From Escherichia coli (GTDB taxonomy: Bacteria > Pseudomonadota > Gammaproteobacteria > Enterobacterales > Enterobacteriaceae): a stretch of 64,000 nt of DNA. Made by a program: the position numbers and the translations under genes. The stretch lies in NCBI RefSeq assembly GCF_003019035.1, contig NZ_CP027447.1. The stretch is one strand, 5' to 3'. Every line of letters starts with the position of its first letter. The stretch's first letter is position 1. Shown here piece by piece: positions 9,880-34,972 of the stretch. The notes beneath the pieces were generated by a model. That model was not told the origin of the DNA and did no database searches. It worked only from the letters and a program-made list of their open reading frames with translations.

Positions 9880-11280
9880 TCAGGTGTGTTTAAAGCCGTT
9901 CTGCTGGGCAATACCCTGCAGTTTCGGGTGGTCGCTGAGATATTTCAGGGAGGCTTTGTAGTCTTCCAGCAACAGTTCAGCAAAGTCCATTTCGAAGCCG
10001 CGACGACACATAATGCGCATCACCACGATGTCGGTGGCTTCACCGCCGAGAGTGAAGGCCGGAACCTGCCAGCCGCGCAGACGCAGACGTTCAGAGAGGT
10101 CGTACAGGGTGTATCCCGGATCTTCACCATCTTTCAGTTTGAAGCAAACCGCCGGGATGCCTTCGTCCGGGCGACCGGTACAGATGAACTCATACGGCCC
10201 CAGTTTGGCGATTTCATCCGCCAGATAAGCGGCAACCTGGTAGGAAGCGTTCTGTACTTTGGTATAGCCTTCACGACCGAGGCGCAGGAATTCATAGTAC
10301 TGTGCAATCACCTGACCCGCCGGGCGGGAGAAGTTGATGGCGAAAGTACCAATCTGACCGCCGAGGTAGTCAACGTTGAACACCAGTTCCTGCGGCAGCG
10401 CTTCTTCATCACGCCAGATAACCCAGCCGCAGCCCAGCGGAGCCAGACCGAATTTATGGCCTGAAGCACTGATCGATTTCACACGCGGCAGGCGGAAGTC
10501 CCAGACGATATCCGGAGCGACGAACGGTGCCAGGAAGCCACCGCTGGCAGCGTCGATGTGCATGTCGATGTCGATACCGGTGTCGGCCTGGAATTTATCC
10601 AGCGCATCGTGCAGCGGCTGCGGGAACTCATAGTTACCGGTATAGGTCACGCCGAAAGTCGGCACCACGCCGATGGTATTTTCGTCGCAGGCTTCAATCA
10701 TGCGTTTCGGGTCCATAAACAACTGACCGGGGCGCATAGGGATCTCACGCAACTCCACATCCCAGTAGCGGGCGAATTTATGCCAGCAGATTTGTACCGG
10801 ACCGCACACCAGGTTTGGTTTATCCGTTGGCTTACCTGCAGCTTCCATACGCTTGCGCCAACGCCATTTCATCGCCATCCCGCCAAGCATACAGGCCTCG
10901 GAAGAACCAATGGTGTTGGTGCCAACGGCCTGACCATTTTTCGGTGCAGGCGCATGCCACAGATCGGCAACCATGTTTACGCAACGCAGGTCGATGGCTG
11001 CGGATTGCGGATATTCTTCTTTGTCGATCCAGTTTTTGTTAATGGATAAATCCATCAACTTGTGGACGTTTTCGTCGTCCCAGGTCTGGCAGAAAGTGGC
11101 CAGGTTCTGACGAGCGTTGCCATCAAGATATAATTCGTCATTGATAATCTGAAATGCGACATCGTCGCGCATTTCGTGCAGCGGAAAACGTTTTGATTCT
11201 GCGATAGTGGAAATAGACTTTGCACCAAAACGTGAATCGAGTAGTTCCGACCTTAAATCCGTTACTTGCTTCTTATCCAT
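9880..11280 (-). CDS. gadB: Glutamate decarboxylase beta
   Basis: Matches GadB from [21 protein letters not shown] (466 aa); the supplied ORF has a 23-codon upstream extension. Confidence 0.93.
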
Positions 11281-11359
11281 TTTAAACTCCTTAAAATGAT
11301 TGGATCGCATTAAAAAAGTAGGATTTATCGATAAAGTAAGCAAGTGCAAAGGACTCGTG

Positions 11360-11379
11360 TTTAAATAACAAAATCCTAA
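11360..11379 (-). promoter_or_regulatory. GAD box (GadE binding site) upstream of gadB
   Basis: Reverse complement reads TTAGGATTTTGTTATTTAAA, which is the GAD-box sequence as I recall it. Confidence 0.6.
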
Positions 11380-11611
11380 TGTTATTTATCGCGAGATATT
11401 ATGTGAATTATATTTTATCATTGAAAATCAATATATTACTGAATTCTTGGGTGGTGGCAAGGTGTTTTATGCTGTTATTTTTATGCACTTTCTACGCCTC
11501 CTGAATTATCACGTAAAAATCAGACCTTAAAATATCACTATTAGCACTCGGCTATTATTTTGAACGCATTTATAAAATTATTACATAAAAATGGCGAATA
11601 TTGCTAAAATC

Positions 11612-11640
11612 CCCGCCAACGAGGTGTTGACGGGGCTGTG
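11612..11640 (-). terminator. Stem-loop downstream of pqqL
   Basis: Imperfect hairpin CCCCGCCAAC...GTTGACGGGG followed by a T-rich run on the minus strand. Confidence 0.45.
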
Positions 11641-11641
11641 A

Positions 11642-14437
11642 TTATTTTGGCAATAATACTCCGGTATAGGTATTCACCGGATGAGAAAGATATTGTTTAA
11701 CGGCAGTGTTAACATTCTCTACCGTCATTTGTTTCAATAATTGCTCCTGCTCAGTCCATGCTGCAGGATCGTCATATTGAATAAGACTATTTACAATGGT
11801 GTTCGCTAATTGTTGAACGCTACGCTGTTGGATATCGAGGCTGCGCTGAACGTTTTGCTGGTATTCATTCAGTTCTTGCTCACTGATCCCTTTAGCCAGA
11901 CGCTTAACCATCACTTCATTCGCTAACGTTAACAGTTCATCATGTCGTTCTGGTTGACAAGTAAAAGCCAGCAAATGACTGATATCTTTGGCCTGAGGAT
12001 CAACCGAGAGACGAGAAGAAACGCTGTATGCTCCAGATGCCTGTTCACGAATATTAACGCGTAGATCTTTTGCCAGTGCGACGTTAAAAGCATCGAGCGC
12101 CATACGCGTCTCCAGATTTACAGGTGTCCGGGAATCATAACGCTTCCACTGTGAAACCTGTGCCACAGGTTCATTTTGTTCTTTTACAGTAACCGATGCG
12201 TTGTCCGTCGCGCGAGTTAATGGTTTACCTGCGGCTAATGGCGAATCAGAGTGTTTGATTGATCCTAAGTAACGCGTAATTAACGCCACGAGTTTGTCTT
12301 CTGCGACATTACCGACAATGACAAACGTGATATCCGCTGGAGATGAAAACAACTGGCGATCGGCAGCCAGCGCATCTGCGGCAGTAAACTGTGCAATCTG
12401 ATTTTCTTGCGGTAATTTCGTGCGGTTATCAGCATAGCGCGTCTCATACATCTGCTGGGCGAATTTCTCCGCTGGACGCTGGTCGAGCGTTTTCAACGCC
12501 TGAATTTGAGCATTTTGTAGCGATGCCCAAATATTATCGTTAATCGTGCTGTGGGTGATTCGCTGGTTAATCAACTGGAAACCAGGTTCAGGGTTATTAG
12601 TCCGCGCGCTAACAGAGAGCAATGTATTCATGCCACTGACTTTACTGCTCATGGTTACCGAGTTTTCCGCACTCCAGCGTTTCAGGCTGGAAGAGGAGAG
12701 TTCACCAACGCCGCTTCCGCTTACTGCTTTATTTGCCAGCGCGATAAGTGATTTTTGCTGCGCAGGGAAACTTAAATCGCCTTTATTAGATACGGCAGTA
12801 ATTTGTAGCTTTTGCTCTTCACCCGCGGATTTTGCCAGAATAACCCTGGCACCATTGGAAAGTGTTAATGATGTCAGATTCTCAGCCAGCGTTTCTTTGC
12901 TGCTAATTTCCGCCTGTGGGTCAGCGTCTACTGTTAACGATAAATTTCTGCCTGGGAAGATGTAAGCTGCCAGCTTTTTGTTGGCGTACTCTTTTTCCAG
13001 CGCCAGGATAGCCGCAGGAGACAATGCTTTTTTGGCGGCAACTTCATTGTTTACCATTTGCTCCCAAAATGCGTCCTGGTTCTTTCTTAACTGCTGCCAT
13101 TTTTCCGCCAGACTTTGCACGGTAATTTGCTGCCACAGACGTTTCGAAAGTTGATATGTCTCTTCCGGCGACAAGAACGGCGTATTATTTAATGAGCTGG
13201 ATGCCAGGCGACTGGTCAGCATACGTAAATCACGCTCAGCTTGCTGATCAACCGCATTTTTCAGCCAGGTAAGGCGGGTAGATTTAACATCATCGAGTTC
13301 TTCAGCAGAAAAGCCATGCTGATCAATGGTTGCCAACTCTGCCATTAATGCATTCGCAGCATCCTGCATATTATCGTCTTGTGCATTTACACGGAAAAAC
13401 AGCGACTGATAATCGGGTGCAATTTTGACGCTGCGCGCAGTGCCGCCAGAAATAGTCTTCAACTCGCCCGACTGTATGCGTTCTTGCAGACGTTGGTTGA
13501 ACAGCTGAACTAACATGCTCCATTCAGCTTGTTCGATAAAGCTTTGCTCATCGCTCACTTGCACCATTGGCAGGCGATAATAGAGTGCGATGCCGTTCAC
13601 CCGGTTTTCTTTATCATTGATGATATTAAAGCGCAGGTGGTTTTCGGCTTTTGTCGGCCAGACGCGATTTTCAGCTGCTTTGTTAGCCGGAAGCTTACTT
13701 AAATTATCCTTTATCAGCGCCAGCGCTTCTTTACTGTCGATATCGCCGACCACAATAAAGGTCATATTATTTGGTTGATACCAGCGTTGATAAAATTGGC
13801 GCAATTGTGCCGGTGTGACCGTGGCGACGGTATCCATCAGGCCGATAGGTTCACGGTCTAAATTACGGGTATTTGCCAGCAGGAAAGGGCGGCGCGCCTG
13901 AGAGGTGCGCCATTTCGCATCCTGATGGGCACGCCATTCCTCAGTAATTACGCCGCGTTCAGCGTCTACTTCGAGTTTTTCAAAGGTTGCGGCATTACTC
14001 CATTCACTGAAGATTGCCATCACTTGTTGCAGATTTTGTTTCTGCGTAGTCGGCAAACTCACCTGATACACTGTTTCGTCATAGCTGGTATAGGCATTAA
14101 CATCGCGACCAAAACGCAGGCCCATTGACTCAAATGTTTCGATGACTTTATTACCCGGCCATGTTTTTGTGCCGTTAAACATCATATGTTCTACAAAATG
14201 AGCCACGCCGCGCTCATTGTCCTCTTCCTGCAATGAACCGGTATGAATTTGCAGCCATAAATTTACCTGATCCTTTGGTTGAGCATGCGGATAAATCATA
14301 TATCGCAAGCCATTGTCCAGTTGCCCGGTAATTAACTTTTCATCCTGCGGTAAGGCGGCGGCAATCAGTCGCCCGGGGAGCAACAGAGTTGCCACTAACG
14401 TCAGTAAGAAACAGAGGTTTCTCATAATTATCTCCAT
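11642..14437 (-). CDS. pqqL: Periplasmic M16-family zinc protease
   Basis: 931-aa ORF with signal peptide and HFVEH zinc-binding motif; matches PqqL. Confidence 0.9.
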   Translation of the reverse strand: MEIIMRNLCFLLTLVATLLLPGRLIAAALPQDEKLITGQLDNGLRYMIYPHAQPKDQVNLWLQIHTGSLQEEDNERGVAHFVEHMMFNGTKTWPGNKVIETFESMGLRFGRDVNAYTSYDETVYQVSLPTTQKQNLQQVMAIFSEWSNAATFEKLEVDAERGVITEEWRAHQDAKWRTSQARRPFLLANTRNLDREPIGLMDTVATVTPAQLRQFYQRWYQPNNMTFIVVGDIDSKEALALIKDNLSKLPANKAAENRVWPTKAENHLRFNIINDKENRVNGIALYYRLPMVQVSDEQSFIEQAEWSMLVQLFNQRLQERIQSGELKTISGGTARSVKIAPDYQSLFFRVNAQDDNMQDAANALMAELATIDQHGFSAEELDDVKSTRLTWLKNAVDQQAERDLRMLTSRLASSSLNNTPFLSPEETYQLSKRLWQQITVQSLAEKWQQLRKNQDAFWEQMVNNEVAAKKALSPAAILALEKEYANKKLAAYIFPGRNLSLTVDADPQAEISSKETLAENLTSLTLSNGARVILAKSAGEEQKLQITAVSNKGDLSFPAQQKSLIALANKAVSGSGVGELSSSSLKRWSAENSVTMSSKVSGMNTLLSVSARTNNPEPGFQLINQRITHSTINDNIWASLQNAQIQALKTLDQRPAEKFAQQMYETRYADNRTKLPQENQIAQFTAADALAADRQLFSSPADITFVIVGNVAEDKLVALITRYLGSIKHSDSPLAAGKPLTRATDNASVTVKEQNEPVAQVSQWKRYDSRTPVNLETRMALDAFNVALAKDLRVNIREQASGAYSVSSRLSVDPQAKDISHLLAFTCQPERHDELLTLANEVMVKRLAKGISEQELNEYQQNVQRSLDIQQRSVQQLANTIVNSLIQYDDPAAWTEQEQLLKQMTVENVNTAVKQYLSHPVNTYTGVLLPK

Positions 14438-14481
14438 GCGAAAACCGGGCGAATTTACCCGGTTAAGTAAAATCCGAACTA

Positions 14482-16854
14482 TTAAAATTTCATGCTGACA
14501 TCAAGCCAGAAAGTACGGCCACTGGCGTAGGTCGCCACACCGGTATTCGTTGTATCAACAGCGGTTTTGCTATCCAGTACATTGAGAATATCGGCACTGA
14601 ACGTCAGGTTTTGTTGTTTCAGAAATTGTGGCGTCCAGGACAAGCGGGTGTCCCAGGTCAGGCTGCTATCCAGTTTTTCGTCAACATACTGCTTGTAATC
14701 TGAATATTCGCTGATGTATTGCGCATTCGTCTTACCCAGGATAATGCGAGCTTTACGCGCTTCTTGCCAGGTCAGCGTATTCGCCCACACCAACCCGTTC
14801 GGTTGATGCGTGAAATCCATGTTTAAGGAGATCTTTAGTGGATTATTAAAATCCGCCACTGGAACGCTATCGTAAGAGACCAGATTACCGTTATAAACCA
14901 CCTGGTTATCACCGGTATTGCTCTCCTCATAACCATTGTTTAACGACAAGTTGCCCTTGCTCTTGATATAGCTAAAGACAATTTGCGGGTTAATATCTAC
15001 CTGGCTGATATGCAGGGGTTCGGCCAGTTCAAAACTGAGGTTGAACGAATGCGTTTTGGTTTTGCCGTCGTTGTTATATTCAGTAATGGTGGTTTTAGTC
15101 GCGCTGTCGGTACGACTGCTTTTGCTGATTTGATCATGCGCTTCACGGTAAACATAGTTTGCGCGCGCAATAACGTTCTTACTGATTTTTTGCTGCAATC
15201 CCATTGCCAGTTCATCGTTATAAGGCGTTTTCAAATCCTGATAACGCGTCAGGGTTTTATTGCCTGATACCGATTCCGTCCAGCTATTGCGAATATCACG
15301 TAATCCCATATCAAGAATATTCCCGCCATAGTAACGGTTATAACCTGCGGTAATCATTGAGGTTTGATCAGCAAAAATATCCCATTCCGTCATAAAACGC
15401 GGGGAGATATTGTGGTTTGACAGATAGTTGTCATAGTCATACCGCACGCCGGGCATTAATGACACATTACGCCAGCTAATGCGATCCGCCATATACAGCG
15501 TGTAGTTGTCAATTCCCAGGCTGCCTTTACCTTTATGGTAAATGGTATGGTTAGTTTTCTTTCCGGCAGCATTAATCACATAGGATTCAGACTGGTTATG
15601 GCGTTCAGTCCATGCATCGGAATAGATGTATTCCGCGCCGAAGTAGGGTTGATGCGAAACATTACCCACGGTGAATTTTTGCCAGTCCAGGCGTGTTTTG
15701 AAGGTGTAATTATCTACAGCCTGGGAAATGTGTCCTAATCCGCCACGGGTGCAACGCCCTGAAATATCACCATATGTACATGAAAGTTCGGTGTACCAGA
15801 TGTCATGATCGTGACGGGTATAATCACTAATATGATCCCAACCAACGGTGGTACGCAGTTTGGCCCATGCGAGCTGGGTATCCATATCCCATGCCAGACC
15901 ATAGGATTTATTACCCATTTCGCGATCAGACTCCGGGAAGGTGCTGGTATTATAATCACGGCTGGAGCCGGTATATTTTAAGGTTAAATCGTGGGTAAAG
16001 CGGTCGCTGGCAAACCAGGTAAATTTGCTCAATGCAGTATCGATAACGTTTTTATACTGTGCCCGGCCGGCGACAATGCCGTCATTCGAAACATAATCCG
16101 CGCGGGTGATATCAGACTGGCGGCGCGATAAACCGGCGGTAACGCCAAAGTTATCAGCGAGTTCCTGATTAAACGACAAGGTATAAAAGTTCTTTTTAAA
16201 ATCTGGAGAGTAATAAGTACTTCCTGAAGAACCTTGATTAAATGCGCTCTTGTTATTCTCATCGATATGCGATGTTAACCAGTCCGAACGCGTAGTGCGA
16301 TAACCCAGTTTCACGCTGCTATCATCAGCGTTGAAGCGTTTGATCTTTGCATCAATTACCCCGCCATTGAAGCGACCAAATTCAACCGGCACAAAACTGT
16401 CATAAAGCGTCACATTGTCCAGTAAGCTGACATCAAGATAATAGCCCTGTGACATCCCGCTAATATTGGTTGCACTACTGGCATCGGACTCATTCGCTGG
16501 GTTCAGGTTATTCGTTGCACTAATGCCATCAATCAAATAGGCATTCTGGTAGGGCGACGCACCGTGAATAGAGATTTTCTCCGGGCGAATATCTCCCTGG
16601 TTCAATGAGGTACTTTGCGTTGAATCCATGCGTACCGCAGGGTTGGTTCTCAGCAGATCGCTGATATTGCCATTCCCGGTCGGTAAACGCTCGATGCTTT
16701 CACTGGTGTAATGCGTGTTGCCGTTTACGGGTACAGGGACAGGAGCATAGACCGTCATCTCTTCAAAAACATGCATGTACATATTTTTGTCATCGACGGC
16801 CTGCGCTACATCAGCGCCACATAAAATGACGCCAGGAATAAGAACTCGCTTCAT
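14482..16854 (-). CDS. yddB: TonB-dependent outer-membrane receptor
   Basis: 790-aa ORF with signal peptide and C-terminal aromatic residue (…DVSMKF); matches YddB. Confidence 0.9.
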   Translation of the reverse strand: MKRVLIPGVILCGADVAQAVDDKNMYMHVFEEMTVYAPVPVPVNGNTHYTSESIERLPTGNGNISDLLRTNPAVRMDSTQSTSLNQGDIRPEKISIHGASPYQNAYLIDGISATNNLNPANESDASSATNISGMSQGYYLDVSLLDNVTLYDSFVPVEFGRFNGGVIDAKIKRFNADDSSVKLGYRTTRSDWLTSHIDENNKSAFNQGSSGSTYYSPDFKKNFYTLSFNQELADNFGVTAGLSRRQSDITRADYVSNDGIVAGRAQYKNVIDTALSKFTWFASDRFTHDLTLKYTGSSRDYNTSTFPESDREMGNKSYGLAWDMDTQLAWAKLRTTVGWDHISDYTRHDHDIWYTELSCTYGDISGRCTRGGLGHISQAVDNYTFKTRLDWQKFTVGNVSHQPYFGAEYIYSDAWTERHNQSESYVINAAGKKTNHTIYHKGKGSLGIDNYTLYMADRISWRNVSLMPGVRYDYDNYLSNHNISPRFMTEWDIFADQTSMITAGYNRYYGGNILDMGLRDIRNSWTESVSGNKTLTRYQDLKTPYNDELAMGLQQKISKNVIARANYVYREAHDQISKSSRTDSATKTTITEYNNDGKTKTHSFNLSFELAEPLHISQVDINPQIVFSYIKSKGNLSLNNGYEESNTGDNQVVYNGNLVSYDSVPVADFNNPLKISLNMDFTHQPNGLVWANTLTWQEARKARIILGKTNAQYISEYSDYKQYVDEKLDSSLTWDTRLSWTPQFLKQQNLTFSADILNVLDSKTAVDTTNTGVATYASGRTFWLDVSMKF

Positions 16855-16891
16855 TTATTTATATCTCCGTACAGCAGGGCTTTTATTGTTT

Positions 16892-18577
16892 TTATAAAAC
16901 CGCGCTAATGTCACAAATATCATCGGCCAGGTTCCAGACACCGGGTTGATGTGTAACCATAATGACGCCGCTTGTGGGGAGTTTTTCTCGCACTAAACGC
17001 AGTAAGCGGATTGCCTCTTGTTCCTCAAGATGAGAGGTAGTTTCGTCAAGAAATATCCATTTCGGACGTCGTAAAATTAATCGAGCCAGGGCGATACGTT
17101 GTTTTTCGCCGCTGGAAAGAATATCTCCCCAGCGATCGTGGTCATGAATACGCGCAGCCAATTTCCCCAGTCCAACCTGATGCAGTACTTCACTCAACGA
17201 TTTATCGTCTACGGACAGGGGAAGTGCTTTACAAATAATCTCTTTCAGTAAGCCGGTTTTGATTAACGGTGTTTGTGACACATACCAACTGTCAGCAGGA
17301 GAAGAAATATCACCTTTAAACCACGGCCAGCAGTGGGATAATGTTTTAAGCAGTGTGGTTTTTCCCGCACCAGAGTAACCTTTCAGCAATAGCCATTTGC
17401 CTGGCAAAACATGAAAGTTCAGGTTCTCTAATATGATCTTATTATCAGGAGTACGAATACTCGCGTCAGCCACTTGTACCGCATGTTGGCAATTTTTAGG
17501 CTTATTCGTAGGGCGCTGTTCGGTGAGTTGATGGAACTCATACAAGCGATCGATAACCGCAGCCAGTTCAGCAAGTTCATCATATTTATAAATAAACCAG
17601 CTTAAATTGTTCGATACCAGCATAAATGCCTGGCGCGATTTCATCAGTCCGCCCAGATTGATCTGTCCGCTAATAAACTGCGGCAATAACAGAAAGTAGG
17701 GAAGAACGCTAAGCGAGCGCGAATAAATATTCTGCCAGTAATCAAGCCACCGCTGACGATTCATTAAACGATGCCAGTTCTCTTTAATGGTATGAAAATT
17801 TTCGCTCAACTCCTGGCGTTGTAGAGACTCAGCATTGCTTAGCGCAATCAGTTCTGCCTGCTTATTATGCTGCACAAGATTAGTTCGAAATGTCGCTTCG
17901 CTACGTTGTTTTTCCACATTAAGCGGACGAATACGTTTACCAACCTTATGGGTAAATAAAGTTCCACCGATCACAATGAGCACGACGGTATAGACCATAT
18001 ACCCCTGGATATTCCATTCAGTTCCACCAACAGTGAATGAGAGCGTACCCGCGCTTTGCCAAAGAATAACGGTAAAGGTGATCAGCATGCTAAGTGACTG
18101 GATGAAGCCAAATGAAAGACTGAGCGTTTTGCTGATCAGTAAGAGAATGTCTTCAGCGATACGTTGGTCAGGGTTATCTGTATTTTTATGCTCGCCGTAG
18201 ATCTGCGTGAAGTAGTAGTTTTTATCTGCAAACCAGCGATTAAGGTAGTAATCTGTTAACCATTCGCGCCAGCGAATAGTCAGTAGTTTAATTAACCATG
18301 TTTTGTTTACGGATATTAATACAAAGATCCCCAGCAGGGCAGGGAACCAAAGGACAAGCTGCCAAAGCTTATCAGTTTCTTTCTGGCTTAGCGCATTGAA
18401 AAAATCATTATTCCAGTCGTTTAACCAGACCTGAATTTTAACCACGCCAAGGATCATGGCGAGGATAATAATGATTAACAACACTGAAGTTTTATTATTC
18501 TTACGCAGCCAAAAGGGCTTCAGCAGACAGAGATACTTTGCTATCAACATACAAAACGTAATGGGAATGGTTATCAT
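16892..18577 (-). CDS. yddA: ABC transporter, fused permease/ATPase
   Basis: 561-aa ORF; Walker A GYSGAGKTT and ABC signature LSSGEKQR. Confidence 0.9.
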   Translation of the reverse strand: MITIPITFCMLIAKYLCLLKPFWLRKNNKTSVLLIIIILAMILGVVKIQVWLNDWNNDFFNALSQKETDKLWQLVLWFPALLGIFVLISVNKTWLIKLLTIRWREWLTDYYLNRWFADKNYYFTQIYGEHKNTDNPDQRIAEDILLLISKTLSLSFGFIQSLSMLITFTVILWQSAGTLSFTVGGTEWNIQGYMVYTVVLIVIGGTLFTHKVGKRIRPLNVEKQRSEATFRTNLVQHNKQAELIALSNAESLQRQELSENFHTIKENWHRLMNRQRWLDYWQNIYSRSLSVLPYFLLLPQFISGQINLGGLMKSRQAFMLVSNNLSWFIYKYDELAELAAVIDRLYEFHQLTEQRPTNKPKNCQHAVQVADASIRTPDNKIILENLNFHVLPGKWLLLKGYSGAGKTTLLKTLSHCWPWFKGDISSPADSWYVSQTPLIKTGLLKEIICKALPLSVDDKSLSEVLHQVGLGKLAARIHDHDRWGDILSSGEKQRIALARLILRRPKWIFLDETTSHLEEQEAIRLLRLVREKLPTSGVIMVTHQPGVWNLADDICDISAVL

Positions 18578-18788
18578 TAGCGAAAATTTATTGTGCCATC
18601 CAATGATTATCTATGGCAATGATATACTGATGAAATTTATTTAAGTATCATTTAACAATATGAAATATAAAGAAATATTTCATTTTCAGTGGTTATGGTT
18701 ATGCTATTGATAATCAAGGGTATTGCTAATGCCCTGACGCATACCTCGTAAGCCAGGATTTTCGCAAAGGAAGATGATGAAGACGAAA

Positions 18789-18814
18789 CACCCGACAGGA
18801 ATTTATGTCGGGTG
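18789..18814 (-). terminator. Stem-loop downstream of ydeM
   Basis: CACCCGACA ... TGTCGGGTG inverted repeat. Confidence 0.45.
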
Positions 18815-18867
18815 CCTTGTTAAGGTCATAAGAAGGAGGCTAAGAATGGAGCTAAGGGGGAGCGTTA

Positions 18868-20025
18868 TTAATTATTCTCCATTTGTTTTGCAACATCCAT
18901 AATGTGGTAAAGCGGTACTCTGTTCTTAGCTAACTCCACCATGGCGTTCATATAAGGTACCATGGTTGAAAAAAGGATTTTATAACCTTCGCAAAAATAG
19001 GAAACAGTCTCATTGTTTACTTTAGTAATACGATGCTTAGGGCAACCACCATTGCAGATAGGTTTATATGCACATTGCTGACATTTCGCTGAAATCCGTT
19101 TTTTTTGCGCTGTCAGTTGAACACTGTTCATCGTTTTGAGTTCAGATTTATTAATGTTTCCAATTTTGTACTGTGGATAGACAAAATGATCGCATTCGTA
19201 AATATCTCCATTACTTTCAACAACCAGATTATCCTTGCAGGATTCCTGGAAAATACAACTGGTATGCCCATTCCCCAAAAAACGGCTGACAAAGCTTTCA
19301 AACTGACGGATGAAAATTTCACCCACATCGTTTTTAACCCATTGCATAAAAATGGTTGACATAAACTTGCCATAAGCCGTGGGAGGCACAGAAAAATCAA
19401 TGATACGGAATGTGTTCTCACTATGACCACTGAAATCAATATTCGGCGTCCCGGTTTCTAGCAATTCGATAAATTGCATATGTTTACTGCCGATAGATTT
19501 TAAAAAATGATAAACCTCATGAGGGTAATGGACATTAACGTTATTAATGACGGTTAACGTATTAAACTCTACTTGATATGATTTCAGACGCTCGATGGCT
19601 GCTATCACTTTTGCAAAAGTACCGTTGCCTGAATTACTGCGTCTGTAACGGTCATGTAGCTCCTGGGGGCCATCGATCGAGATACCAACCAGAAACTCAT
19701 GTTCTTTGAGAAAGGCACACCATTCATTATTCAATAAAATGCCATTCGTTTGTAATGCATTAAAAATACGTTTTTGGCCTGCATAGCGTTGTTGATAGTG
19801 AATAACTTTACGGAAAAAATCCAGGCCAGCCAGAGTGGGTTCACCCCCTTGCCAGGTAAAATAGACCTGATTGCCAGACGCTGCGATATATTGTTTGATG
19901 AACTCTTTCAGAGTGCTGTCATCCATCCATTTTTCATGAGTAAACTGCGACTCTTTTTCAAGGTAAAAACAGTAATCACATTTGAGATTACATTGAAAAC
20001 TGGAGGGCTTGGCTGTAACGTGCAT
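18868..20025 (-). CDS. ydeM: Radical-SAM anaerobic sulfatase-maturating enzyme homolog
   Basis: CNLKCDYC radical-SAM motif near the N-terminus; matches YdeM (about 385 aa); start chosen at MHVTAK. Confidence 0.85.
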
Positions 20026-33383: not shown

Positions 33384-34706
33384 TTACTTAATACCGTATT
33401 CTCGGCTTAACCGACGGTGCAACCTTAACACATTGGTTTCAACTGCCGTCACCACGTTCTCCGGAAAATCTGTCGGTAATGAAGTCTTCACATGATCCAG
33501 TGCTGCCGGAATCATTCTGGCAAAGTCACTCAGGATTTCATGCATCTGCACTTGCGGAAATTTCAGCACCTTTGCTGTCGCCAGAAAATGTCGCGGATAA
33601 ATTTTATCGATTGCCGTTTTTTTGCCTTTGGATGCGTTAAGCCCCATTGCCAGTTTGAGATCGCTGATGTGTATTCCTGCGCCACCCAATACCGGAAATG
33701 CTGAAATGATGTCGTAAAATGGCGTGAGTCGATAACTGCCGCCAGCCTGAATAAATACGGAGAAGTTTTTTGCATGGCCATCCGTTGCGCCAATCAACCA
33801 CTGGAAGACCTGGAATTTCATAAAATCATAACGATCTTTCAGCGCCTCGCTGGACCCCATCAAAAAAGCCATGATCCGCGCGATGCCTGGGCCTCCATCT
33901 GATTCATATTTCACCGATGAAGGTAAACCAAATGTCTGACACATATCCTCCTGTGGCAAGCGAAGTAAAACCGTTCGCTCAGTATTCCAACGCCTGTCAA
34001 AACGTTCGACCGCTAACGCGCGCACATTTCCCGCTTTAATGATTTCTGCGTCCGGCACATTCAACCCAAGTTCTTTCGCCAGCAGCAGACAGTAATACTC
34101 ATTATCAACGCTTTGGCTGAGATCGAGCGTCGCATTGGGCTGCCTGATTTCGCCAATCGGTAATTTAATGATGTGCGTCGTCGGCGTTATTCCTTTCGGA
34201 ATGCACCAGTCATTGCCTATTCTGAGCAGTGCTGTCTTCTCCTGTGCGCCAGCAACCGAGATGCGAAAGTCATTTTCTTCTCTAATCATGCCTAGCGGGA
34301 TATCTGCTTTATAAGCCGTTAATACTTCTTCAAGTCTGGCTTCAGTAAGCTTTTCCCATGCCATTATCGGACGCGTTACGGTTTCGTCTTCGGGTATTAA
34401 CGTCACAGCACCAACGCTGTCTCGCCCTATTTCTGACAATAAATCAAACGGTTGTCTGGATTTAGCATGATAACGTTTAACGATCCGGTCACGTACAATC
34501 GGGCTATCGGGTAGCAGGTTATCGAAGAAGTTAAATACAGCATCAGAGGTGATATTCCCCCTCTGCAATGGCAGCGAAAGTGATAACGGTCTGGCATAAC
34601 GGTTGGCTAACCACTCCGGTGCATACTTAAAGGTGTGCGCGCCGTTGGCTAACTTCGTTAACTCGCCTACCCGCTGGTTGTTCATCCAGGTGACAAGTTT
34701 AGGCAT
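33384..34706 (-). CDS. hipA: HipA serine/threonine kinase toxin
   Basis: 440 aa from MPKLVTWMNNQRVGEL; start overlaps the hipB stop by 1 nt. Confidence 0.95.
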   Translation of the reverse strand: MPKLVTWMNNQRVGELTKLANGAHTFKYAPEWLANRYARPLSLSLPLQRGNITSDAVFNFFDNLLPDSPIVRDRIVKRYHAKSRQPFDLLSEIGRDSVGAVTLIPEDETVTRPIMAWEKLTEARLEEVLTAYKADIPLGMIREENDFRISVAGAQEKTALLRIGNDWCIPKGITPTTHIIKLPIGEIRQPNATLDLSQSVDNEYYCLLLAKELGLNVPDAEIIKAGNVRALAVERFDRRWNTERTVLLRLPQEDMCQTFGLPSSVKYESDGGPGIARIMAFLMGSSEALKDRYDFMKFQVFQWLIGATDGHAKNFSVFIQAGGSYRLTPFYDIISAFPVLGGAGIHISDLKLAMGLNASKGKKTAIDKIYPRHFLATAKVLKFPQVQMHEILSDFARMIPAALDHVKTSLPTDFPENVVTAVETNVLRLHRRLSREYGIK

Positions 34707-34972
34707 TACCACTCCAGATCTTGCTGTTCTGTTGATTCTGGCGAGGCATTTTTCGTGTCGCATAGCGTCATTGAGAGTTCAAGCGACTGTAAAATCTTAA
34801 AAAATGTCGTGAGCGTGGTATTGTCAGGGTTGTTTTCGAAATTGGAAATTGTCGCCTGCTTAATACCGATTTTTTTCGCCAGCTCGCTCTGCGTCCAGCC
34901 ATTTTGCTGACGAACCAGTTTCATTGCATTCGCTAATTGCGTTGGGTTATAGATCTTCTGAAAGCTCATCAT
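34706..34972 (-). CDS. hipB: HipB antitoxin (Cro/C1-type HTH)
   Basis: 88 aa from MMSFQKIY. Confidence 0.93.
   Translation of the reverse strand: MMSFQKIYNPTQLANAMKLVRQQNGWTQSELAKKIGIKQATISNFENNPDNTTLTTFFKILQSLELSMTLCDTKNASPESTEQQDLEW

Follow-up and report, generated by a model that had tools for sequence, protein, structure and literature searches.

The window analysed here, a 64,000-nucleotide stretch of the Escherichia coli chromosome (contig NZ_CP027447.1), carries at 11642-18577 three minus-strand genes that are the known Fur-repressed operon yddA-yddB-pqqL, a protease-associated import system similar to the Fus system (FusA-FusB-FusC-FusD) of Pectobacterium and Dickeya. Our open reading frame (ORF) listing places ORFs of 561, 790 and 931 residues at 16892..18577, 14482..16854 and 11642..14437, respectively, with gaps of 37 bp between yddA and yddB (16855-16891) and 44 bp between yddB and pqqL (14438-14481). 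This bears out the initial annotation, which had described three same-strand genes separated by those two gaps but had titled them in plus-strand order, whereas transcription runs yddA, yddB, pqqL. The Pfam domains of all three ORFs likewise agree with its assignment of an M16 protease, a TonB-dependent receptor and a fused ATP-binding cassette (ABC) transporter, and ORFs of 561 to 931 residues with such Pfam scores are far beyond chance. By Megablast against complete E. coli genomes the locus is 100% identical to that of strain SCU-301, where the RefSeq annotation of the region reads gadC-gadB / pqqL-yddB-yddA / (yneP) ydeM-ydeN-ydeO, and the sequence is about 98% identical to that of K-12 BW25113. 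The feature is real, and both its identity and its interpretation are already known: the locus is one of the two archetypes of the protease-associated import systems of Grinter et al. 2019 (PMC6793856), the published YddB and PqqL structures are those of the proteins encoded here, and we observe nothing in the window that distinguishes it from the published E. coli system. Previous work has described YddA, YddB and PqqL as homologues of FusD, FusA and FusC, respectively (PMC5095587).

The receptor gene yddB (14482..16854, minus strand) encodes a TonB-dependent outer-membrane transporter of the FusA/YddB clade. Its product matches the Pfam TonB-dependent receptor Plug domain (3.9e-07), is near-identical to PDB entry 6OFR in a PDB sequence search, and has as its sole other solved relative the ferredoxin receptor FusA (4ZGV/9RHR, E 3.7e-80). 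Besides the plug, we found a TonB-box-like motif, EEMTVYA, at residues 31-37, with similar motifs in homologues, and a C-terminal Phe (the chain ends ...SMKF), so that YddB combines a putative TonB box with the plug and C-terminal aromatic residue of a TonB-dependent transporter. In the crystal structure the pocket measures about 28 x 29 A (PMC6793856). A protein search places YddB in a narrow family that comprises E. coli, E. fergusonii (87% identity), then members at 70, 61 and 57%, a group at about 45% from Orbaceae of the bee gut, and others at 35% or below.

Last in the operon, pqqL (11642..14437, minus strand) encodes a periplasmic M16 zinc protease that belongs to the FusC/PqqL subfamily and is a single chain of double length. 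It matches Peptidase_M16 (3.9e-41) and Peptidase_M16_C (3.2e-54), its N-terminus resembles a signal peptide, and with HFVEH at residues 80-84 and E167 the HxxEH...E site is intact. PqqL is near-identical to 6OFS/6OFT, and its next solved relatives are the M16 peptidase 9LDY (1.4e-82) and then FusC 6B03/6B05/6BRS (about 1e-59; 6B03 1.2e-59); the recently solved 9LDY, deposited as 'Peptidase, M16 family', is thus nearer to PqqL than FusC is. Experiments have shown that PqqL is periplasmic with its signal peptide cleaved, that it is active and induced by bipyridyl and urine, that its crystal structure is an open clam shell, and that it prefers peptides with F/Y-F/Y-V/A (PMC6793856). PqqL shares with pitrilysin (PtrA) and other M16 enzymes both the HxxEH inverzincin motif and the M16 clam-shell architecture; however, PqqL and FusC are classed as M16B-like, yet are single chains with a hinge (PMC12731061), and are encoded beside transport genes, and the NCBIfam pitrilysin model scores PqqL at 34 bits against a cut-off of 765. 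The start codon differs between sources: UniProt and the initial annotation use 14437 (931 residues), whereas RefSeq uses 14425 (927 residues), which widens the yddB-pqqL gap to 56 bp. A GGAG lying within the first two codons of the longer form, 7 nt before the second ATG (14425), is well placed as a ribosome-binding site.

The historical name of this gene would imply a protease of pyrroloquinoline quinone (PQQ) biosynthesis, a proposal that goes back to complementation of Methylobacterium pqqE/F mutants (cited in PMC3855560) and that finds a faint echo in a weak match to the PqqF model. That match reaches only 48.7 bits against the TIGR02110 cut-off of 320, so the name cannot be taken to indicate a PQQ role. 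Moreover E. coli makes no PQQ (stated in PMC3855560), no pqq genes lie nearby, and a periplasmic enzyme (PMC6793856) encoded with a receptor and an ABC transporter is not what this proposal would predict; we regard it as effectively refuted.

The first gene, yddA (16892..18577, minus strand), encodes a half-transporter of the SbmA/BacA/Rv1819c-like (type IV) clade, which we propose to be an inner-membrane importer. A single chain matches ABC_membrane_2 (PF06472, 8.9e-44), SbmA_BacA (PF05992, 2.5e-34) and ABC_tran (PF00005, 5.2e-18), and because the membrane and ATP-binding domains share this chain the transporter is a fused one. The Walker A (GYSGAGKT), signature (LSSGEKQR), Walker B (WIFLDE) and H-loop (VTH) motifs are all present and their columns are invariant in our homologue alignment, so that YddA has the fused transmembrane and motif-bearing ATP-binding domains of an SbmA/BacA-like type IV transporter. 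Like the SbmA, BacA and BclA importers it matches the SbmA_BacA transmembrane domain, and its nearest solved relative in a PDB sequence search is Rv1819c of M. tuberculosis (6TQE, E 2.3e-67), followed by the ABCD transporters. In contrast to SbmA and BacA, which have no ATP-binding domain, YddA retains one, and it scores 87.6 bits against the curated NCBIfam SbmA model, for which the cut-off is 492. A 2026 study regards the family of YddA as one 'of unknown function' and derives SbmA from an ancestor resembling YddA (PMC13316013). The start of yddA is itself uncertain, because the homologues from three of the relatives discussed below (L010, L012 and L013) begin in the alignment at the position of E. 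coli Met10 (ATG at 18550); we see no clear Shine-Dalgarno sequence before either this ATG or the annotated one at 18577.

The three genes form one transcription unit with recognizable ends. The unit is bounded upstream by the ydeM intrinsic terminator (18787..18816, minus strand), a GC-rich hairpin GGCACCCGACA / UGUCGGGUGUU that leads into a U-rich tract, with a fold z-score of -3.4 (1/200 shuffles as stable), and it closes with an intrinsic terminator that begins 7 nt past the pqqL stop (11604..11635, minus strand), in which a 10-bp stem CCCCGUCAAC / GUUGGCGGGG precedes AUUUUAG (z-score -3.7; 0/200 shuffles as stable). Upstream of yddA we found a sigma-70-like candidate promoter (18590..18619, minus strand) with a -35 element TTGCCA at 18619-18614 separated by an 18-nt spacer from an extended -10 element TGgCACAAT whose hexamer lies at 18595-18590; it has 9/12 matches together with the TG, as a consensus match only, and is invariant in five diverged E. 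coli strains. Published RT-PCR placed yddA, yddB and pqqL on one mRNA (PMC3855560), which contradicts the first of two findings that were to count against the module in the initial annotation, namely a lack of co-transcription.

The second was a lack of iron regulation, and here too the evidence runs the other way. When the 19-bp consensus GATAATGATAATCATTATC was slid across the entire window, the joint best match (15/19) was GCTAATGATAACCATTCCC at 18563..18581 (minus strand), which lies over the annotated yddA ATG. When the 310-bp upstream region was dinucleotide-shuffled, only 0.6% of the shuffles attained this score, and the putative Fur box that was published for CFT073 (PMC3855560) falls within the site. 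If Met10 (18550) is taken as the start, the box would be part of the leader instead of overlapping the start codon. The other 15/19 match, GACAGTAATACTCATTATC at 34088-34106, is probably there by chance and lies inside a 459-residue minus-strand ORF (33384..34763). A weaker Fur-box-like site, GCCATAGATAATCATTGGA (18599..18617, minus strand; 12/19), occupies the spacer between the -35 and -10 elements and is invariant in the five strains, but alone is not significant. These strains show no variation at all between about 18650 and 18555 while positions farther upstream vary, which at a species divergence of about 2% may reflect constraint but is only weak evidence of it. Experimentally, Fur was found bound upstream and acts as a repressor, with yddAB-pqqL in the direct Fur regulon of both K-12 and CFT073, and RyhB possibly adds positive control (PMC4676285, PMC7157518). 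Transcript levels increase more than 30-fold in urine, and a fur mutant shows de-repression (PMC3855560).

Thus, of the two places where the initial annotation had suggested looking for Fur boxes, the region upstream of yddA holds one, at the start of that gene, whereas the yddB-pqqL gap (14438-14481) does not. The best match is 10/19 in each of the internal gaps with their margins (14428-14491 and 16845-16901), no better than in shuffles. Consensus scanning for promoters, folding for terminators and comparison with Rfam likewise gave nothing convincing in either gap, and we see no sign there of an internal Fur-regulated promoter; an Rfam scan of the wider region 11000-19200 at E <= 1 was also empty. 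The yddB-pqqL gap does contain a small 8-bp hairpin (14443..14464, minus strand), AACCGGGU / GCCCGGUU with a 6-nt loop, followed by UUCG. The surrounding 81 nt fold with z = -1.26, which is not significant, and the element is nearly invariant in the five strains, with one outer-pair substitution and no informative covariation. We considered it as an attenuator and set this aside, as its fold is indistinguishable from shuffles and the strains gave no covariation to support it; by RT-PCR, transcription was found to continue through the gap (PMC3855560). The hairpin might modulate read-through into pqqL, as a weak attenuator or a stabiliser, or it could be without function.

Additional support for a three-part module comes through gene neighbourhoods in distant relatives. 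An ABC transporter, a receptor and a double-M16 protease are linked in four of them, with YddB identities from 61% down to 28%. The order is ABC, receptor, M16 in L008 (61%) and in the Orbaceae loci L009/L010 (45%); in Muribacter muris (L012, 28%) the receptor precedes the M16 gene and the ABC gene is convergent; and in L013 (30%) genes for TonB and for an extracytoplasmic function (ECF) sigma factor with FecR accompany an STN-receptor followed by the ABC and M16 genes. A fifth relative, Oryzisolibacter (L011, 30%), has a receptor with a cytochrome c peroxidase, and both the protease and the ABC gene are absent. The flanking genes differ in every case, and the YddA/YddB/PqqL identities fall in step (53/61/47, 51/45/40, 36/30/27 and 34/28/25%). 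This reproduces the arrangement described by Grinter 2019. A YddA-type ABC gene (33-53% identity) stands beside the receptor and protease in 4/4 of the protease-containing relatives, and this linkage shows that the YddA-type transporter belongs to the module no less firmly than the protease does. Moreover, the best Fur-consensus match anywhere in the locus is, for each of L008, L009 and L010, a 16/19 site 45-90 nt upstream of the ABC gene, so iron control appears to be common to the closer relatives. The additional parts seen at L013:5465-15306, that is, the TonB gene, the ECF sigma factor with its FecR anti-sigma factor and the STN signalling domain on the receptor, suggest that this lineage may use substrate-induced cell-surface signalling. 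We also considered L013 as a true Fus orthologue and rejected this, as its receptor is nearer to YddB (3.3e-95) than to FusA (9e-66) and so belongs to another member of the family; since L013 is not Fus, the homology of YddA to FusD rests on the published comparison (PMC5095587).

These neighbourhoods bear directly on the proposal that YddA is an ABC multidrug exporter that shares regulation with yddB and pqqL, but no transport pathway. YddA has been reported as an ATP-driven exporter on the basis of yddA-dependent changes in minimum inhibitory concentration and vanadate-sensitive efflux of ethidium and norfloxacin (PMC9728188), and its fold, with type IV ABC and ABCD relatives, is of the exporter type. 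However, the linkage to receptor and protease in at least four distant lineages, with divergence in step, counts against an exporter; its nearest solved relative, Rv1819c, imports although its fold is that of an exporter; earlier overexpression studies, as summarised in PMC10971958, had no drug-resistance phenotype; and Fur repression fits uptake. On balance we consider a drug exporter highly improbable.

Comparison with Fus points to the function that the module may serve. Both systems have a FusA-clade TonB-dependent transporter, a single-chain double-M16 periplasmic protease as well as an ABC transporter of the fused kind, and in both all genes lie in one iron-regulated cluster; the E. coli locus thus holds a FusA/YddB-clade receptor, a FusC/PqqL-type protease in conserved linkage, a FusD/YddA-type ABC transporter and, in silico, a Fur site. 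The two differ in gene order, E. coli having ABC, receptor, protease, and in host, E. coli being an animal-gut bacterium and the Fus host a plant pathogen, and YddB is only about 24% identical to FusA (PMC6793856). The initial annotation had read the locus as a protease-associated TonB-dependent import system resembling ferredoxin uptake, with a poorly defined substrate; this is the published view (Grinter 2016, 2019), and it is supported by the matches of YddB to 6OFR and FusA and of PqqL to 6OFS and FusC.

We suggest the following course of events. When iron is scarce, Fur would come off its boxes, which extend across the promoter and the start of yddA, and transcription would yield one mRNA that begins near 18583 and ends with the terminator at 11604. 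YddB in the outer membrane, whose pocket is some 28 A wide, would bind and translocate a small globular protein or a peptide, and would be driven by the general TonB-ExbBD of the cell, because the cluster encodes no dedicated TonB. In the periplasm PqqL, a clam-shell M16 zinc protease with a preference for F/Y-F/Y-V/A, would capture and cut the cargo. Homodimeric YddA, exporter-like in fold but a member of the SbmA/BacA/Rv1819c importer clade, would then take up into the cytoplasm what has been released, whether cofactor or peptide fragments. Fur-controlled uptake through YddB, cleavage by PqqL and import by YddA is in our opinion the probable overall model, although the import of protein as such, the nature of the cargo and the direction and cargo of YddA are the parts that we infer. 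The identity of the genes, the structures, the location and activity of PqqL, Fur control, co-transcription and the conserved linkage of the three genes are established, and so is a fitness role in vivo, in that yddB and pqqL mutants were outcompeted in systemic infection (bacteraemia) of mice (PMC3855560).

Several observations weigh against this model. A gene for a dedicated TonB, which a strict Fus system has in FusB, is missing from the E. coli cluster, whose neighbours are gadB and ydeM/yneP. Dipyridyl alone did not raise the transcripts in CFT073 (PMC3855560), and deletion of yddB or pqqL caused no growth defect in iron-limited LB (PMC6793856). PqqL cut none of the human ferredoxins, globins or plant ferredoxin that were offered to it, the last being a further difference from Fus (PMC6793856), and a December 2025 review of M16 enzymes still enters its substrate as 'n/a' (PMC12731061). 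None of the NCBIfam models reached its curated cut-off for YddA, YddB or PqqL, and YddB had no NCBIfam match at all. To these must be added the drug export reported for YddA and the loss of the operon, described below, from about 13% of complete E. coli genomes, clinical isolates included, which makes the operon dispensable in many lineages.

Some of the same observations could be accommodated if the cargo were not a folded iron protein but a peptide or a small peptide-like or metallophore compound, such as a peptide of ribosomal origin, a molecule resembling a microcin, or oligopeptides used as nutrients. PqqL would then trim peptides in the periplasm, YddA would be an SbmA-like peptide importer, and iron regulation would serve to sense the niche and not to supply iron. 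The match of the YddA transmembrane domain to the SbmA_BacA family is consistent with this, as are the requirement for a Burkholderia YddA homologue in the uptake of the lasso peptide ubonodin (bioRxiv 10.1101/2022.03.09.483586) and the finding that yddA overexpression raised the depletion of amino acids and one dipeptide from serum (PMC10971958). PqqL, moreover, cuts short peptides with F/Y-F/Y-V/A and 0 of the tested proteins, and a growth phenotype under iron limitation is absent (PMC6793856). Against a peptide cargo stand the large, FusA-like pocket of YddB (PMC6793856), FusA being its sole other solved relative; the closed-chamber, FusC-type architecture of PqqL; and the conservation of Fur boxes upstream of homologous clusters, which indicates an iron-related role. 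We therefore regard a peptide or small-ligand cargo, the main alternative to our model, as possible but unlikely. Rather doubtful, in our estimation, is the further idea that the system serves in the gut niche to take up one particular small protein or peptide, produced by the host or other microbes, and not for Fus-like iron-protein piracy. If so, YddA might by analogy import peptide fragments, possibly cofactor-bearing ones, like its SbmA/BacA/BclA relatives, and the loss of the operon in about 13% of genomes could mean that the substrate is absent in some niches or that there is selection against a receptor open to exploitation by toxins.

Under the favoured model of protein uptake, yddAB-pqqL is one of few candidate protein-import machines in E. 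coli, and it is a validated fitness factor in the mouse bacteraemia model. The homology to Fus was first noted in 2016. The window itself does not bring the question of the substrate any nearer to a test, and what we report in support is context and not discovery. For those searching for the substrate this context is that the ABC transporter is as tightly linked to the receptor and protease as these are to each other, that Fur-like sites occur in distant relatives, and that the operon was lost twice within the species.

This loss is evident in a survey of complete E. coli genomes, in which 4603 of 5426 cover at least 80% of 11560-18800. Most of the remainder are explained by two clean deletions, one joining window position 12555 to 18856 and the other 12804 to 18758, which are independent events. 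The deleted spans, 12556-18855 and 12805-18757 (junctions in L003:9000 and L002:7240, respectively), remove yddA, yddB and the 5' two-thirds of pqqL; each junction has a 3-5 nt overlap and leaves a 3' pqqL pseudogene. The second junction was found in 160 genomes, among them LF82 and the cerebrospinal fluid isolate MCJCHV-1. A query for the first junction was covered in 726 genomes, a number that likely includes the 160, because the two halves of the query lie about 350 nt apart in genomes of the second type and the search tool would join them. On this reasoning the first deletion would be present in about 566 genomes (726 minus 160), which gives the total of about 13%. Insertions of IS1 and IS4 in the operon region also occur.

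Two minor observations concern the region upstream of yddA. A 41-codon ORF (18777-18902, plus strand) that is divergent from yddA, and that is annotated as a hypothetical protein here and as YneP in K-12-like genomes, overlaps in antisense both the terminator of ydeM and the final 35 nt of that gene; a search for family matches to it found none. Secondly, apparent plasmid copies of the operon turned out to be mostly chromosomes deposited as plasmids, or fragments. Several genuine E. coli plasmids of 96-120 kb from pigs and sediment carry only a 583-bp piece, 18218-18800, beside insertion sequence (IS) elements. It comprises the ydeM terminator together with the promoter, Fur box and 5' end of yddA, and has the look of a fragment that IS activity picked up from the chromosome.

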